From IMG/VR virus record IMGVR_UViG_3300027754_000003, positions 1 through 64,000 of that record: a stretch of 64,000 nt of DNA; one strand, 5' to 3'. The DNA is from a virus. The position numbers and the translations under genes were made by a program. Shown here one piece after another: positions 12,695 to 41,266 of the stretch. The notes under the pieces were generated by a model. The model was given only the letters and a program-made list of their open reading frames with translations, ran no database searches and had not been told where the DNA came from. Position 1 is the first letter of the stretch, and each line of letters opens with the position of its first letter.

Positions 12695-13610
12695 TTAACC
12701 ACCAGGGGAATACTGAGGAGTTTTTAAGTGCTGTAATAATTTCGTCTTGAGTCATGTCACCGATGTCTTTTGCGTTCGTGTGTGCGTAGTGGATATATTT
12801 TATACCATTCCTGAAGGCTGGGAGTTGCTCTTTAAGCCTTTTTGCAGACTCAATACCTGCATCATCATTATCCATAGCAATGATAAGGCTGTCTACGTGG
12901 TCAGAAAGAATTCTAATCTGCTCCTTACTTACCGCAGCCCCAAAGGTAGCCAGACCACGAACACCATTAGCAACGGTGTCAATACGGGCAACATCTAAAG
13001 GTGACTCAACAAGAACTGCAATCTTTTTATCCAACTTGTCAATACCAAACAATGTTGTAGATTTCTTAACCCCAATTGGGTAGTTGCGAACCTTTGATGG
13101 TTCTTTCTCTTGCCAGCCAAGCAACTCACCCATCGGTGAAACCATTGGCAAAATCCAAGCCTGTTTTTTATCGTCATACCTGATGCCGTACTTTCGTGCT
13201 GACTCTCGGTCAATTCCACGAGTCCACAACACACGGTCAGACGGGGCGGAGAAGGAACTAAAAACCTTCCAATCAACTACTGGCTTTAATACCTCAACTG
13301 GTTCGGTTGTAAGTCTTTCTAAACCAGTCTCAATAAGAAAGGTATGTACTGCAATAATACTGTCAGGTTCTCCTGTCAACTCTGAAACAAGAGTGGACAA
13401 CGTACCTTTAGCACCGCACGAATAACAAATCCATAAGCCGCTACGTGCGTTCATAGACCATGACGGAGAATTATCTGCTTTGCCTGTGTGCTTCTCATGC
13501 ACAGGGCAACATGCAGAAATCTCCTTTTCACCTACACGCTTTACCTTGACACCCAAACGGGACAAGACATCAGCAATGTCAGTAATACCAGTTGTCCCTG
13601 TCGCTGTCAT
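12687..13610 (-). CDS. DNA primase (CHC2 Zn finger + TOPRIM)
   Basis: CPVHE...WICYSCG, VESPLD, DNDDAG, KDIGD. Confidence 0.92.
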   Translation of the reverse strand: MTATGTTGITDIADVLSRLGVKVKRVGEKEISACCPVHEKHTGKADNSPSWSMNARSGLWICYSCGAKGTLSTLVSELTGEPDSIIAVHTFLIETGLERLTTEPVEVLKPVVDWKVFSSFSAPSDRVLWTRGIDRESARKYGIRYDDKKQAWILPMVSPMGELLGWQEKEPSKVRNYPIGVKKSTTLFGIDKLDKKIAVLVESPLDVARIDTVANGVRGLATFGAAVSKEQIRILSDHVDSLIIAMDNDDAGIESAKRLKEQLPAFRNGIKYIHYAHTNAKDIGDMTQDEIITALKNSSVFPWWLSV

Positions 13611-14841
13611 CATCATCATCTTCTCCTACTTCTGTAAAGTCCATGTTGTTCCAGTCCCAGTTAATTCTGATTTCACCAGATGGGGCCGAACGTGCAATAA
13701 CTACACGAATGATTCCTTGGTTCTCAATGTCTGGGTCAGACTCAACTGCAAGCACAAGGTCTGAGTCTTGGGCAAACGATGAGGTATAACCAATTGAGTC
13801 CACAGTAACTCGCCGTGACTTCTTGTTCCCTAACTTCCACGATAGTACCTGTGTAGTACCAACAACTGGAATGTCAGCATTCTGAGCAAGCCGTTTTAGC
13901 GAGCGAGTGATGTTAGTCAAGGCTTGCGGTGAACCCTTTGGTTCTCCTTGCTCATCATCCATTAGGTACACACCGTCAACAAACAAGATGTCTGGTTTGT
14001 ACTCTTGAACTTTTGCCGCTAGTGAACTAACCGTGGTGAGCGATGAGGTGTCTTCAGTTATAATAAATGGGTGCATGTTCTTGCGTAGGCGCAAAGATTC
14101 ACGAACCTTCTCAAACTCCTGGTCAGATAATGATGCACGAAGAATGTTGCTGTACGGAACCTTGGCAACGATTGCGTCATATCGTGCGGCTTGTTCCTCT
14201 GCGGACATTTCAAATGAAACAAAGAGTGGGCGCTTGCCATGAATGTGAGCAGCGTTAGCCATCATCAAGGTCATCAATGACTTACCCTTCTTTGCTTCAC
14301 CAACGAATGTAATCAACTGTTGAGGGCGAAGACCTGAAGTAATCCTGTCAAGGCCGTTGATACCAGTAGGAATGCCACGCAATGCGTTTGGCATCTTTCG
14401 TAGTTCGTCATACTTTGCTATTCGTGCTTCCCAAGTTTCAATAAGGTTTACATCTCGTAAGCGAGCAACGTCTGCTCCAGCCTTTTGAACGCCAGCAGCA
14501 AGCAACTTAAATGCTTCGCCAGTGTCACCAGCGTTGAGCGCAGGCATTGCTGCTGACATTGCTTCAACAAGGTTGCGTTGCCTGTAAGCACCAAACACTT
14601 CGTCAACCAAAGCGCTGAATGGTTCTGTTGAAGCATTGATGATTTTTACATCACCAAACTCCATGTTGATGGCTCGTTCGCTAGGTACTGAACCATGTGT
14701 GCGCCAGTAGGTGATTAACCACGACCAGATTTGCCCCCACTCTTTAGTGAAGTGGTCAGCCTTTACGCCATGCTTAAGTGGGTAAGAAACATCTTGCTCA
14801 CCGATTACTTTACTAACTAAGAGTTGTTCTGCACTAGCCAT
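13579..14841 (-). CDS. DnaB-like replicative helicase
   Basis: GIPTG...LD..T.GL, GEAKKGKS, SFEMS, FVDGVYLM, QDSD. Confidence 0.93.
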   Translation of the reverse strand: MASAEQLLVSKVIGEQDVSYPLKHGVKADHFTKEWGQIWSWLITYWRTHGSVPSERAINMEFGDVKIINASTEPFSALVDEVFGAYRQRNLVEAMSAAMPALNAGDTGEAFKLLAAGVQKAGADVARLRDVNLIETWEARIAKYDELRKMPNALRGIPTGINGLDRITSGLRPQQLITFVGEAKKGKSLMTLMMANAAHIHGKRPLFVSFEMSAEEQAARYDAIVAKVPYSNILRASLSDQEFEKVRESLRLRKNMHPFIITEDTSSLTTVSSLAAKVQEYKPDILFVDGVYLMDDEQGEPKGSPQALTNITRSLKRLAQNADIPVVGTTQVLSWKLGNKKSRRVTVDSIGYTSSFAQDSDLVLAVESDPDIENQGIIRVVIARSAPSGEIRINWDWNNMDFTEVGEDDDDDSDRDNWYY

Positions 14842-15280
14842 TGTTAGACCACGCAGTCTTTGATGAGACTACGGTTGCTCTAAGCCCAAGCAGTTTGTAA
14901 TGTTCATACTCGGCAACATAAATCTGGTTAATACCACGATTGATGCTGAGGTCATAAGCAAGTTCTTTGATGTCTTGGTATGCAACCACGTTTGTTGAAA
15001 TCCCCTTCTTGATTAACCACCTCTCAATCGCATCAGCGACTTGAGGTGGAAGCAGTGTATAAACCTCTGTACCTATTCCCAACCTGTTTACTGAATCACT
15101 CAACGATTTTATTGGAAGAGTGTTTGGTTGCCATAAACGTAGGTACGAGTCCCATTTCTCATTGCGTAAGTAAAACGATGCCTTAACTTTTGCAATGCCT
15201 TCTGGTGGCGATGCAAGCACACCCTCAAACATAGTTGCCTGAGAACGAGCAGTAAAGGAAGACAGGTCGTTACCTTGCAT
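14834..15280 (-). CDS. hypothetical protein
   Basis: Likely start MQGNDLS at 15280; lies between the loader and helicase genes. Confidence 0.7.
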   Translation of the reverse strand: MQGNDLSSFTARSQATMFEGVLASPPEGIAKVKASFYLRNEKWDSYLRLWQPNTLPIKSLSDSVNRLGIGTEVYTLLPPQVADAIERWLIKKGISTNVVAYQDIKELAYDLSINRGINQIYVAEYEHYKLLGLRATVVSSKTAWSNNG

Positions 15281-15911
15281 GTTGGCTAGTCCTGTAATCC
15301 TTTCCTTCAAACGGAATTTGTAAAGTTGAATCTTGAAGAATTGAAGACAACCTTGGTCCATACACTTTTGCTAAAGATGCAATCGTGTATTCGGAAGTAA
15401 CGATAGTAATCAACTTCTGCTCGTAGCGACTATTCAACAATGATACAAGAGCGCTCTTAGTAAAGTCCGTTTTCTTTTCACCACCAAGACCGTCAAGCAC
15501 CAAAATGTCATATACCGAGTTGAGATACTTAAGCATGTACTCATCGCCATACTCTTCTGGCAACTCTCCATCGTTACGAATCTCATCGTAAGATGCTTCA
15601 ACAAACTTTTCAGTAGTAATAAAAAAACCACCAACTTGTTTAGTTGCTAACAACTCTGTCAGCATGGCAGAAGCAAGGTGAGTTTTTCCTGTTCCAGTTG
15701 TTCCGCACAGATACAAACCTTCTCCGTTTGTGCGGTTCTCATCAAAGTTCCCCATCCATCCCCGAATGGCTTTGGTTACACCCCAACTACCAACTTCTTC
15801 GTTGTAGTTCTCCAAAGTCTTATCTGCAAACCTACGAGGAATGTGTGCGTTTGATACACGCTCTTTTGGTTGACGGTTGCGCCAGTAGCGAGGACCATGC
15901 CAGTCAGTCAT
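15270..15911 (-). CDS. DnaC/IstB-like helicase loader ATPase
   Basis: IPRRF, GLYLCGTTGTGKTHLA, LVLDGLGGE, TIVTS. Confidence 0.9.
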   Translation of the reverse strand: MTDWHGPRYWRNRQPKERVSNAHIPRRFADKTLENYNEEVGSWGVTKAIRGWMGNFDENRTNGEGLYLCGTTGTGKTHLASAMLTELLATKQVGGFFITTEKFVEASYDEIRNDGELPEEYGDEYMLKYLNSVYDILVLDGLGGEKKTDFTKSALVSLLNSRYEQKLITIVTSEYTIASLAKVYGPRLSSILQDSTLQIPFEGKDYRTSQHAR

Positions 15912-16311
15912 TAAGGTACTTCTCCAATCGTGGGTCAAAGTTCATCTGGTCTTGTGCGGTCTGTACTGTACCGCTACGAACACGTGCGAACAACCCACCT
16001 CTTCTAGCAGCGAATGCTTGCCAAGGAGTTTCTTGTTCTTTCAACGGTATGCGCTTAATGTCATCAGCAAACAAATCAATCATCTGGTAAATCTCTTCAT
16101 GTGTTACCGAATTAGATAACATCTCTTTAAATATCTTCATCATGGCTGGTCCGTTAACGGGGGCGTTTAAAGTCATAGACGTTCCAGTAGTGCGGTCTTG
16201 TAAATACATAACTAACTTTTTGAGGCTTGGACCTTGTTGTGGTTCAACCTTCGGCTTATCTTCATCAGCGCCGATTACTTTGACATCCCAGTCATCGTTC
16301 TTCTTTTTCAC
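15904..16311 (-). CDS. hypothetical protein (possible initiator C-terminal partner)
   Basis: Overlaps both the initiator and loader genes. Confidence 0.65.
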   Translation of the reverse strand: MKKKNDDWDVKVIGADEDKPKVEPQQGPSLKKLVMYLQDRTTGTSMTLNAPVNGPAMMKIFKEMLSNSVTHEEIYQMIDLFADDIKRIPLKEQETPWQAFAARRGGLFARVRSGTVQTAQDQMNFDPRLEKYLND

Positions 16312-16823
16312 TCCGACTCCAAGTTTTCAATCTGGCGCATCCATCTGGGGTCTTGAAGCATAAAAGTAGGAATTTTTCTATCCCTTCCTTTGGCCCCCTC
16401 TAGAGAGTGATTAGTCTCTATAGATTGGGTGTCGCTGGGGATACCCTCCGAGGGTGTCGCTGGGGACACTAGGGGGGTAGCGCTGGCGACACTACTAGGG
16501 GTATCGCTGGAGACACCCTCCCTGGACTTCGGGTTGTTAAAGTCCACGGTGTAAAGATTGGTTTTATTGTTCCCACCCTTAGCCCTGCGTATAGTCTTTC
16601 GCAGTACTCCAGCAGACTCAATACGTTTCATTGCACGTATGATTGTTGTCCTGCTAAGACCAGTCTTTTCAGCCAGATGGTCGTAAGACGTTGTGAACTG
16701 TTGATTTTCATTGTCCATGTACTTCAGAGCGTTTACCAATACGCATAAGGCGATTGGGTCATTTCCGATGTACTCCATGACCCAACTTGGAATTGGGATG
16801 AATGTTCCACTAAACTTTGCCAT
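16308..16823 (-). CDS. phage replication initiator (wHTH, lambda O/RepA-like)
   Basis: SYDHLAEKTGLSRTTIIRAMKRIESAG...TNLY; followed by an iteron-encoded linker; AGAGGAG RBS. Confidence 0.85.
   Translation of the reverse strand: MAKFSGTFIPIPSWVMEYIGNDPIALCVLVNALKYMDNENQQFTTSYDHLAEKTGLSRTTIIRAMKRIESAGVLRKTIRRAKGGNNKTNLYTVDFNNPKSREGVSSDTPSSVASATPLVSPATPSEGIPSDTQSIETNHSLEGAKGRDRKIPTFMLQDPRWMRQIENLESE
16427..16518. repeat. four 20-bp iterons, putative replication origin
   Basis: GGGTGTCGCTGGGGATACCC (16427), GGGTGTCGCTGGGGACACTA (16452), GGGTAGCGCTGGCGACACTA (16475), GGGTATCGCTGGAGACACCC (16499); 23-25 bp period inside the initiator gene. Confidence 0.85.
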
Positions 16824-16825
16824 GT

Positions 16826-16854
16826 TTGAATTTCTCCTCTTTGTGTGTTAACAT
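16826..16854 (+). promoter_or_regulatory. sigma70/SigA-type promoter on the + strand
   Basis: TTGAAT-17 nt-TAACAT with a TGn extension; points into the intergenic hairpins. Confidence 0.6.
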
Positions 16855-16860
16855 CTGATT

Positions 16861-16981
16861 ATGAGAAGGACTTCCTCCTTCTTTGCCGACTCTGTTTTCC
16901 CCTTTCTACAGGGTCGGCTATATAGGATTGAGGGTGGCAGGGTTTCCTTCTTTGACCTGCCACTCTCTCCTATAAGTTTTT
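16861..16981 (+). ncRNA. putative three-hairpin small RNA with anti-SD-like loops
   Basis: Stems 16863-16883, 16885-16918 and 16921-16974; G-U pairs form only on the + strand; C/U loops; T-tract at 16977-16981; upstream promoter. Confidence 0.55.
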
Positions 16982-17548
16982 GACTTCCGCAGTCCCGTCT
17001 GAGTAGACTGTAATCTGCATTACAGGCTTTACAACGGTCAAAACCTTCTCCATGCGTGTGGTAGACACCACCTCTACTTTTGGCTCATCCTGGGGCTTCC
17101 TAGAGGCTTCTGAGGAGACATGGCTGGGGTCTACCGATAGTGGAGCAAGGCCGTTAGTCAGTTCAAGACAAGGCAATTTCCTGTCGTATGCCCCAAAGAC
17201 CAGTTCCTTGGTCAGTTCTGTAGGTTCTCCAGTCTCGTCTGTGTCAAACAGGACAAGGACTTCAAGGGAGTTTTCTGCAATAGTTTGTGCTTGTACAAAA
17301 GCGTCTTCTACAAGATTCTCCATGTGGTACACAATCAGAGAAGCGTCAAGAACCGATGGGTGTACTTTACCTGTTGAGTACACAATGAACTTTTCATTGC
17401 GAGTAATAAGCCAGTCAAGTACTCGTGCCTGACCTGCGGTTGGTTTGCCTGTCCAGATGACATGGAAGCATGTTCCTTGTGTGTCATTCAGTCCAGTTTC
17501 AATTACGTTTGCGGAAGCGTTTCCTGTGCCACCAATGATGTATTCCAT
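16970..17548 (-). CDS. hypothetical protein (alpha/beta fold)
   Basis: 192 aa ORF with AAGGA RBS. Confidence 0.7.
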   Translation of the reverse strand: MEYIIGGTGNASANVIETGLNDTQGTCFHVIWTGKPTAGQARVLDWLITRNEKFIVYSTGKVHPSVLDASLIVYHMENLVEDAFVQAQTIAENSLEVLVLFDTDETGEPTELTKELVFGAYDRKLPCLELTNGLAPLSVDPSHVSSEASRKPQDEPKVEVVSTTRMEKVLTVVKPVMQITVYSDGTAEVKNL

Positions 17549-17557
17549 GTTGTTTCC

Positions 17558-17812
17558 TTATTTGATTGAGCGTTTATATGACATATCCCCCATTAAGGTG
17601 AGTAAGCGTAGCAGAGTGTGAACCATTCCAGCAAGTGTTGCTACTGCTAGACCTGACAGCCATCGGTCATCAAAAGGAACAATAAAGATTGTAATGTAAG
17701 ACAACACTGTTCCTGCAAGTACTTTTACCCAGGGCATTACTTCTTTTGGTAAAAGCGATTCAATAATTTGTAACACTTTGTAAACGGCTAATGCACAGAT
17801 GATGTAGTTCAT
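17558..17812 (-). CDS. small membrane protein (3 TM)
   Basis: Hydrophobic segments; ATGA-coupled to the upstream gene. Confidence 0.7.
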   Translation of the reverse strand: MNYIICALAVYKVLQIIESLLPKEVMPWVKVLAGTVLSYITIFIVPFDDRWLSGLAVATLAGMVHTLLRLLTLMGDMSYKRSIK

Positions 17813-41237: not shown

Positions 41238-41266
41238 AGCGTATCCTACCTAAGTAGGTGTGTCAA
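41238..41266 (-). promoter_or_regulatory. SigA-type promoter with a palindromic spacer
   Basis: TTGACA-17 nt-TACGCT; the spacer holds CCTAC-TTAG-GTAGG. Confidence 0.8.

Follow-up and report, generated by a model that had tools for sequence, protein, structure and literature searches.

A predicted antisense RNA with three covarying hairpins beside the replication initiator gene of a freshwater phage

What does the 146-nt gap between ORF192 and a replication initiator gene, both on the minus strand of a phage genome, encode, and on what would its product act? We compared this gap with those of relatives from freshwater metagenomes and put the probability at about one half that it encodes a cis-antisense RNA of ~120 nt, exerting control like that of the OOP RNA of phage lambda.

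The phage and its replication module

The window, by which we mean the whole stretch of DNA that was analysed, comprises the first 64 kb of a virus record 98,060 bp long. The phage is of lytic type, with a 98-kb genome, direct terminal repeats and a GC content of ~44%, and its minus strand carries nearly all genes. It has two WhiB genes, which are taken as an indicator of actinophages (PMC10202952), and its GC content is near that of cultured phages of the freshwater order 'Ca. Nanopelagicales' (~45%; PMC10202952). Every relative that we found, and every sequencing run containing the region, originated from freshwater or lake samples. Given these three observations it is reasonable to assume an actinobacterial host, and Actinobacteria are probably the hosts of this phage group; the same host had been proposed in a preliminary description of the locus and is plausible in view of the two WhiB genes. 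A search of the phage genes found no sigma-70 factor, CsrA or RNase III of the phage's own. The best promoters of the phage resemble host sigma-A sites, the two best (both TTGACA-N17-TACGCT) being located at 41266 and 92431.

The gap separates two genes which seem to share a transcript (Table 1). ORF192 had no match in Pfam or PHROG, and the only lead was a weak one in the Atlas, to DprA/YAcAr-like proteins (0.86-0.87). In neither the gap nor the final 110 nt of ORF192 did we find a conserved sigma-A promoter for the initiator, and there is a conserved one upstream of ORF192, which means that the sense transcript leading to the initiator almost certainly crosses the hairpin region. This upstream promoter (17634-17605) was kept in all relatives (as TACGAT in the most distant one, L025) where neighbouring synonymous sites vary, and its -10 is identical to that of the promoters at 41266 and 92431. 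Two other minus-strand candidates, CATAAT in the gap and TTGTAA-N16-TACAGT at 17034, were rejected as they are unconserved. The preliminary description had set the element against flanking minus-strand genes; the strand of these genes was as described, but the element is not an isolated antisense unit, as it lies inside a probable ORF192-initiator operon. The four iterons within the initiator gene are a probable lambda-type origin; three relatives (L005, L007 and L025) also have four, spaced 24/23/25.

Table 1. Coordinates of the features at the locus, numbered from the first letter of the window.
Feature	Position	Strand	Details
Downstream replication genes	13579-15938	-	DnaC-like loader 15270-15938, 175-aa ORF, DnaB-like helicase 13579-14841
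Replication initiator	16308-16823	-	171 aa, O-like, winged-HTH N-terminal domain; phrog_270, phrog_391 and others 'replication initiation (O-like)'; Pfam HTH_36, RepL
Four iterons	16427-16516		~18-23 nt, spacings 25/23/24, dyad GTGTC..GACAC; inside initiator gene
Antisense promoter (predicted)	16826-16854	+	-35 TTGAAT 16826-16831, 17-nt spacer, TG 16846-16847, -10 TAACAT 16849-16854
Initiator Shine-Dalgarno	16834-16842	-	AAAGAGGAG (minus sense); in the antisense-promoter spacer, outside the predicted RNA
Predicted non-coding antisense RNA	16861-16981	+	~120 nt; covariance model R1, 130 bits
Hairpin 1	16863-16883	+	16863-16870 pairs with 16876-16883; 8-bp stem; loop CUUCC
Hairpin 2	16885-16918	+	16885-16895 pairs with 16908-16918; 11 bp; loop UUUCCCCUUUCU
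Hairpin 3	16921-16974	+	16921-16927 and 16930-16941 pair with 16956-16974; 19 bp, UU bulge; loop GUUUCCUUCUUUGA
T-tract (U-tract) TTTTT	16977-16981	+	after hairpin 3; possible terminator tail, in the window only
ORF192	16970-17548	-	last 12 nt including stop codon overlapped by predicted antisense RNA
Probable sense-strand promoter	17605-17634	-	TTGCTG-N18-TGcTACGCT; inside 3' end of a 90-aa ORF

Covarying hairpins and the promoter pattern before them

The three hairpins, the T-tract behind them and three G-U pairs (16863/16883, 16891/16912 and 16933/16964) were all found where the preliminary description had placed them. The G-U pairs form in plus-strand RNA, and each of them is an A-C mismatch on the minus strand. 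The local sequence CUUCCUCCUUCU is present at hairpin 1, and the stop codon of ORF192 (16970-16972) falls within the 3' arm of hairpin 3. Folding with RNAfold gave -61.7 kcal/mol for the plus strand (z -6.45), with 0 of 200 shuffles as good, and -49.7 kcal/mol for the minus strand (z -5.08), where again no shuffle was as good. Two small ORFs were considered and rejected as unconserved: a 40-codon ORF on the plus strand (16861-16983), the start codon of which is absent in relatives (ACG), and a minus-strand upstream ORF starting from the AUG in CAGAUGUUAAC.

Protein-guided and pattern-guided scans of freshwater metagenomes yielded 12 distinct versions of the gap. The metagenome scan yielded only 4 close loci, and a wider protein-profile scan for the initiator added no further loci. 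In L025 the initiator is 49% identical and the module is kept, with 69% identity in the RNA region vs 61% and 54% in the flanking coding DNA; the RNA region is conserved at least as well as the flanking coding DNA. A covariance model built for the element (R1) found all 12 versions at 96-133 bits, and found a single copy of the element in the phage genome.

In the model-guided alignment of the 12 versions, 91.4% of the cells were paired, vs ~52% when the partners were slid. Compensatory changes, on both sides of a pair, were found in 17 of 35 pairs, and none of 500 shuffles reached the observed values. These changes are spread over all three hairpins: both sides had changed in 6 of the 8 pairs of hairpin 1 and in 7 of 10 pairs of hairpin 2, and hairpin 3 has 4 pairs with double changes and 99.5% of its cells paired. 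The extreme case is hairpin 1 of L007, in which stem and loop sequence are wholly different and the shape is retained. The loops behave otherwise. The core of the hairpin-2 loop, CCCCUUUCU (16899-16907 in the window), is invariant in all 12 versions, and the hairpin-3 loop is either UUUCCUUCUUUG or UUUUCUCUUCUUU across the relatives. This is the reverse of stems being kept and loops lost, a pattern which the preliminary description had associated with mere terminators or origin elements.

The element belongs to no Rfam family and has no match among the deposited phages which we searched. All 4227 Rfam families were compared with both strands by cmscan, and the best scores were 16-20 bits vs gathering scores of 40-110. 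A blastn search (word 11) with 16300-17600 against 50,697 phage records gave no match, and tblastn against the same records gave only remote HTH matches to O-like proteins of Pseudomonas, Erwinia and Stx phages. A loose DNA pattern combining the hairpin-2 loop and a hairpin-3 arm had 74 and 120+ matches in viral and genome collections, all new ones being chance matches; R1 found nothing real among 143 chance pattern matches, with none at E<=1 except three of ~20 bits.

Upstream of the hairpins is a plus-strand promoter sequence, TTGAAT-N17-TAACAT with a TGn extension, which the preliminary description had pointed out and which we found at the same position and conserved in the 12 variants. It ranks among the best promoter-like sites genome-wide and overlaps the Shine-Dalgarno (SD) sequence and the start codon of the initiator on the opposite strand. 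The -10 is TAACAT, TACGCT, TACTAT, TACGAT or TATATT, so that T1, A2 and T6 are invariant in all 12 sequences and positions 3-5 are free to vary. Directly 5' of the -10, TGTG(T/C) is also invariant in the 12 sequences, giving the TGn extension with TG at -15/-14. The TTG of the -35 is kept in 11 of the 12 at N17 spacing (N16 in L025), the exception being L007. The distances are held as well: it is constantly 20 nt from the start codon to the -10 (19 in L025), despite a 4-nt shift of the SD which is offset by compensating indels, and 7-8 nt from the -10 to hairpin 1 in every variant, so that the RNA would begin with a purine right at the first stem. TAnnnT with an extended -10 is the pattern expected of an actinobacterial promoter, and the conservation seen here resembles that of a real sigma-A extended -10 promoter. 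We place the start of the predicted RNA 7 nt past the -10 and its probable end at the U-tract 3' of hairpin 3. A repeated phage-specific promoter motif around TAACACA was also considered and rejected, being absent before other genes. It should be noted that the conserved TGTGTTA and TTG could alternatively be constrained within the sense 5' leader. The predicted RNA begins ~19 nt beyond the initiator SD.

Functional strand and likely mode of action

We compared the two strands as candidates for the functional molecule. The plus strand was the more stable one in 10 of 11 variants. In hairpin 3, G-U is seen at three positions and A-C at none; at one of the three, 10 of the 12 sequences have G-U and the other two G-C or A-U. 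Over all stems, G-U outnumbers A-C by ~6-7 to 3, which is suggestive and not significant, and three one-sided stem changes favour the minus strand. U-rich tails were found in the plus sense only, after hairpin 2 in most relatives (UUU(U)A) and after hairpin 3 in the window; L025 is without any U-rich tail. The T-tract of the window, located within the upstream ORF, is unconserved, relatives having AACUGUUUGG and similar sequences in its place, and a terminator pattern scanner made no call at hairpin 3, as the loops are longer than 8 nt. The sequences behind the hairpins in the minus sense (AUAUAGCC, AAAGAAGG and AUAAUCAG) are A-rich or mixed and contain no U-tract. Genuine minus-sense terminators of the phage do have U-tracts, e.g. 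near 90.6 kb, and we rejected an intrinsic terminator of the minus-strand operon as these tracts are missing after the hairpins in that sense. Judged by promoter pattern, spacing, stability and wobble pairs, and tails, the functional strand appears to be the plus strand, and a plus-strand RNA gene is the best reading of the region. The antisense-oriented small RNA gene of the preliminary description is in this respect upheld by the conserved promoter and the covarying hairpins.

A reading in which the sense (minus) mRNA is the functional molecule was also considered, and we regard it as unlikely. The hairpins would then be an intercistronic processing or stabilising site (e.g. an RNase III substrate, or protectors of 3' or 5' ends) or an attenuator. 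The loops, which are purine-rich in this sense (AGAAAGGGG(G) and CAAAGAAGGAAA), would resemble SDs and serve as pads holding 30S subunits, with the held 30S protecting the RNA or handing terminating ribosomes to the initiator start 146 nt downstream, and the plus-strand promoter would be incidental or serve for interference only. Sense RNA must cross the gap, and the minus strand too folds far better than its shuffles. Two lake metatranscriptomes contain small parts of the region as unstranded contigs, which carry no information on ends or level. One of these contigs (345 nt, depth 2.8) spans 16610-16954; since it crosses the antisense promoter, it reflects sense RNA or carried-over DNA and not the small RNA. 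Read in the minus sense, the hairpin-2 loop can form 9-10 pairs, one of them G-U, with the 16S tail 3'-UCUUUCCUCC (-12.4 kcal/mol), whereas the plus-sense loop mismatches the canonical GGAGG. The three one-sided stem changes are on the side of the minus strand, and the invariance of the loops needs a trans partner, for which 16S rRNA is a conserved candidate. However, the sense reading leaves the -10-like pattern and the fixed plus-strand spacings unexplained. It also has to accommodate the missing U-tracts, A-C mismatches at three positions of hairpin 3, the hairpin-3 loop of the L005 type and the hairpin-1 loop of L007, which are poor SD mimics, and the fact that no conserved upstream ORF follows the SD-like loops.

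The position of the element, adjoining the replication module, would also suit a function at the level of DNA, with hairpins or cruciforms of an origin, or a single-strand signal for initiation or packaging, beside the initiator gene. Some origins typically combine conserved loops with covarying stems, DNA hairpins tolerate G-T pairs, and the purine-rich motifs of the three loops form imperfect direct repeats. We nevertheless consider this reading extremely improbable. A conserved iteron array with dyad symmetry is located elsewhere, within the initiator gene, and the gap is not AT-rich. An O-like initiator, a DnaC-like loader and DnaB point to theta-type initiation, for which no hairpin origin is needed, and the promoter signature would again be without explanation.

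We return to the cis-antisense RNA as the preferred reading, under which the events may be pictured as follows. Host sigma-A polymerase would initiate at ~16861, from a promoter the spacer of which lies over the initiator ribosome-binding site (RBS) on the opposite strand. Antisense transcription would head away from the initiator, pass through the three hairpins and end at or after hairpin 3. The sense mRNA started at 17634-17605 would comprise ORF192, the gap, the initiator, the loader and DnaB, and would carry the exact complement of the small RNA. Pairing of the two RNAs might begin via the loops, after which the duplex could be cut by host RNase III and/or the RNAs destabilised. In addition, a polymerase on the antisense promoter (covering 16806-16881) may block oncoming sense polymerases. 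By either route, initiator expression would be restricted or timed, and with it the firing of the iteron origin within the gene. As the RNA leaves the SD uncovered and no refolding that hides the SD was seen, duplex-dependent cleavage or decay and head-on interference are the likely effectors; a switch of this refolding type in the sense leader was looked for in the folds and dropped. Tuning of the adjacent initiator, one of the roles put forward in the preliminary description, is the most likely role that we predict for this RNA.

Plain cis-antisense control leaves one feature unexplained, namely the invariance of the loops, as any mutation automatically keeps the pairing in cis. The invariant CU-rich loops suggest an additional conserved partner. 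One possibility is that the plus-strand RNA acts chiefly in trans, its CU-rich loops binding purine-rich or G-rich RBSs of host (or phage) mRNAs and shutting down host translation or particular host genes, in the manner of the actinobacterial 6C RNA, staphylococcal RNAIII and RsaE, or the cuckoo RNAs. A conserved trans partner is called for by the conservation of the hairpin-2 and hairpin-3 loops while the stems covary. Of 10 positions in the hairpin-2 loop CCCC(C)UUUCU, 9 agree with the 16S tail CCUCCUUUCU. Regions of translation initiation in the phage were better pairing partners for the loops than coding controls, and for the hairpin-3 loop 13 bp are possible with the initiator SD (-12.8 kcal/mol). 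There is also an actinobacterial precedent in the 6C sRNA, which represses targets including panD and dnaB and the C-rich loops of which bind G-rich RBSs without a chaperone (PMC6486639); given this precedent, a C4-5 loop is not meaningless in Actinobacteria.

As the chief function, action in trans nonetheless seems to us distinctly improbable. The sole CCUCC core (16874-16878) is unconserved, with CUUCUUCC in relatives, and the invariant CCCC of the loop mismatches GGAGG; the global anti-SD silencing proposed in the preliminary description is not supported in view of these two findings. Nor is its suggestion that leaderless or coupled phage genes escape such silencing, as about half of the phage's own genes, including the initiator, are led by good SDs and would themselves be affected by a general anti-SD RNA. 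The hairpin-2 loop motif is unique within the 98-kb genome and has no perfect target elsewhere in the phage, and the RNA shows no likeness to 6C, LhrC or any other Rfam family. Among genome windows, the pairing of the hairpin-3 loop with the initiator SD reaches only about the 1% quantile, and across relatives it shows no preference for the cognate SD; we rejected a role of this loop in repressing the initiator SD specifically, the pairing being neither exceptional nor cognate-specific. The CU-rich stretch at 16834-16842 is merely the complement of the initiator's own SD.

A more specific form of action in trans, which we hold to be very improbable, is that the plus-strand RNA is a phage mimic of an actinobacterial regulator with C-rich loops or of the 16S 3' tail, binding G-rich RBSs of the host (e.g. 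that of dnaB, a 6C target in mycobacteria), or, as its mirror image, that the loops of the sense RNA, AGAAAGGGGG, act as traps for 30S subunits or host 6C. A mimic of this kind would shut off host replication or translation, the phage supplying its own initiator, loader and DnaB, and either the mimic or the mirrored form would account for the frozen loops. Two further ideas were rejected. A CsrA sponge, suggested by GGA in the minus-sense loops, does not fit a phage without CsrA, and CsrA is not expected in the probable host phylum either. A MazF-type decoy, suggested by UCCUU motifs, was discarded as the motif is unconserved in the L005 clade.

Known antisense systems and the meaning of the locus

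The closest parallel to the cis-antisense reading is the oop region of lambda. There, the promoter pO fires against pR, a self-terminating RNA of 77 nt overlaps the end of cII, and the next gene is O with its internal origin (PMC3349717); the OOP-cII duplex is cut by RNase III (PMC3349717, its reference 47). In the locus described here, as predicted from its sequence, an antisense promoter likewise lies just before an O-like initiator gene and faces the operon, the RNA would cover the intergenic gap and the 3' end of the upstream gene with its stop codon, four iterons form the putative origin within the initiator gene, and the initiator RBS is not covered. There are also differences. We found no sequence homology to the oop/pO block by blastn among 50,697 phage records. 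The predicted RNA has ~120 nt and three hairpins vs 77 nt in lambda, and overlaps the upstream ORF by 12 nt vs ~55 nt. ORF192, the upstream gene, is no cII homologue, and the probable host is actinobacterial. With regard to self-termination, as known for OOP, UUUUU follows hairpin 3 in the window, and the relatives are without this tract and mostly have UUU(U)A after hairpin 2. Finally, the loops here, unlike those of OOP, are invariant, CU-rich and similar to the 16S tail.

Plasmid countertranscripts, such as ColE1 RNA I, pT181 RNAI/II, pIP501 RNAIII and pMV158 RNAII, form a second group for comparison. These multi-hairpin RNAs of ~50-140 nt are the antisense of a replication gene's leader or of a primer; their promoter points away from rep, pairing begins with contacts between loops, and they set the level of the initiator. 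The size and three-hairpin shape of the predicted RNA recall ColE1 RNA I and pIP501 RNAIII, and it is similarly complementary to 16861-16981 of the initiator's sense leader. However, it leaves the rep RBS uncovered, unlike pMV158 RNAII, and does not face a leader of the pT181 or pIP501 kind, in which a terminator is inducible; in the sense leader we saw neither a U-tract terminator nor an alternative fold hiding the SD. The element is also found in a 98-kb lytic-type phage with direct terminal repeats and not in a plasmid, and it did not match the Rfam models for ctRNA, CopA or RNAI. Countertranscript systems of plasmids have been reviewed (PMC5703833, PMC4485353).

Two families of small RNAs resemble the element in their loops. 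Like the 6C sRNA, it belongs to the same probable host phylum and has adjacent hairpins with C-rich loops, which are able to bind G-rich RBSs without a chaperone in 6C (PMC6486639) and could do so here. Unlike 6C, it is phage-encoded and cis-antisense to an operon, only one of its loops has a conserved C4-5 run, which continues as UUUCU, and there was no match to the Rfam 6C family even at E up to 10 (181-nt query). The cuckoo RNAs (RSs0680/CcsR family; PMC4615179) have two to four adjacent hairpins (three here) with pyrimidine-rich, anti-SD-like loops and variable stems. They are alphaproteobacterial, co-transcribed with a small upstream gene and antisense to nothing, and each of their loops carries CCUCCUCCC (PMC4615179). 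The loops here are CUUCC, (U)UUCCCCUUUCU and GUUUCCUUCUUUGA, and CCUCCUCCC is absent from all of them and from every relative, so that the parallel drawn to cuckoo RNAs in the preliminary description is not borne out at the level of the motif.

An antisense RNA before a phage or plasmid initiator is of a well-known kind, and the RNA predicted here would be a new family within that kind. The regulatory RNAs of actinobacteriophages, and above all those of uncultured freshwater phages, are an almost unknown field, and the covariance model R1 defines a new RNA family which can be used for the annotation of freshwater viromes. With its promoter, three covarying hairpins, O-like initiator and internal iteron origin, the module mirrors the cII-oop-O arrangement of lambda in an unrelated lineage. 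This lambda-like layout suggests that antisense control at the entry of the replication module arose convergently or is very old, and the frozen loops which resemble the 16S tail may offer a handle on trans targets or on ribosome capture.

Iterons and promoter-like sites

We found four iterons in the linker-coding portion of the gene for the O-like replication initiator (see table). Downstream of these, in the minus sense, there is a palindrome (CTATAGAGA..TCTCTAGAG) as well as a stretch richer in A/T. Three freshwater relatives which carry the hairpin module, L005, L007 and the more distant L025, also have four iteron copies each, at 24/23/25 nt. The array is a probable lambda-type origin.

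The sense promoter-like site upstream of ORF192, the 192-aa ORF preceding the initiator, is conserved and sits within the 3′ end of a 90-aa ORF with a weak holin-like PHROG match. This site would begin an operon running from ORF192 through the initiator and loader to DnaB, and it is therefore probable that ORF192 belongs not to the tail module but to the replication module. TTGACA-N17-TACGCT accounts for two of the phage's four best sigma-A-like promoters, and the −10 TACGCT of those two is shared with the sense promoter (17610-17605) and, in the L005 clade, with the antisense promoter.

Coordinates of the sequence features
Feature	Position	Strand	Sequence	Remarks
Four iterons, ~18-23 nt each	window 16427-16516		GGGTGTCGCTGGGGAYAC, dyad GTGTC..GACAC	spacings 25/23/24 nt
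Best sigma-A-like promoters	window 41266; genome 92431, 95060, 70195	minus
Promoter-like site	window 17605-17634	minus	TTGCTG-N18-TGcTACGCT	conserved
Exact 10-nt direct repeat	window 16876-16885 and 16945-16954		TCCTTCTTTG
Perfect 7-bp inverted repeat	window 17008-17025		CTGTAAT-CTGC-ATTACAG	3′ end of ORF192
Non-coding stretch, 388 nt	genome 76884-77271			closes the only plus-strand gene block
Two WhiB-family genes	genome 89191-89391 and 90861-91055	minus		presumed early region, beyond the window

Repeats and structured sequence

In the predicted antisense RNA, the first copy of the direct repeat forms the 3′ arm of hairpin 1 together with the spacer, and the second lies within the loop of hairpin 3. 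Because both places have the same sequence, the hairpin-1 5′ arm could alternatively pair with the hairpin-3 loop; the repeat is only partially conserved among relatives. The inverted repeat in ORF192 is probably incidental, as synonymous changes disrupt it in several relatives.

Beyond the window, the non-coding stretch has very strong plus-strand structure (−146.8 kcal/mol over 408 nt), with CCCTCTAGTAG-like units recurring within it.

Host affiliation

The pair of WhiB-family genes constitutes the main evidence that the host is actinobacterial.
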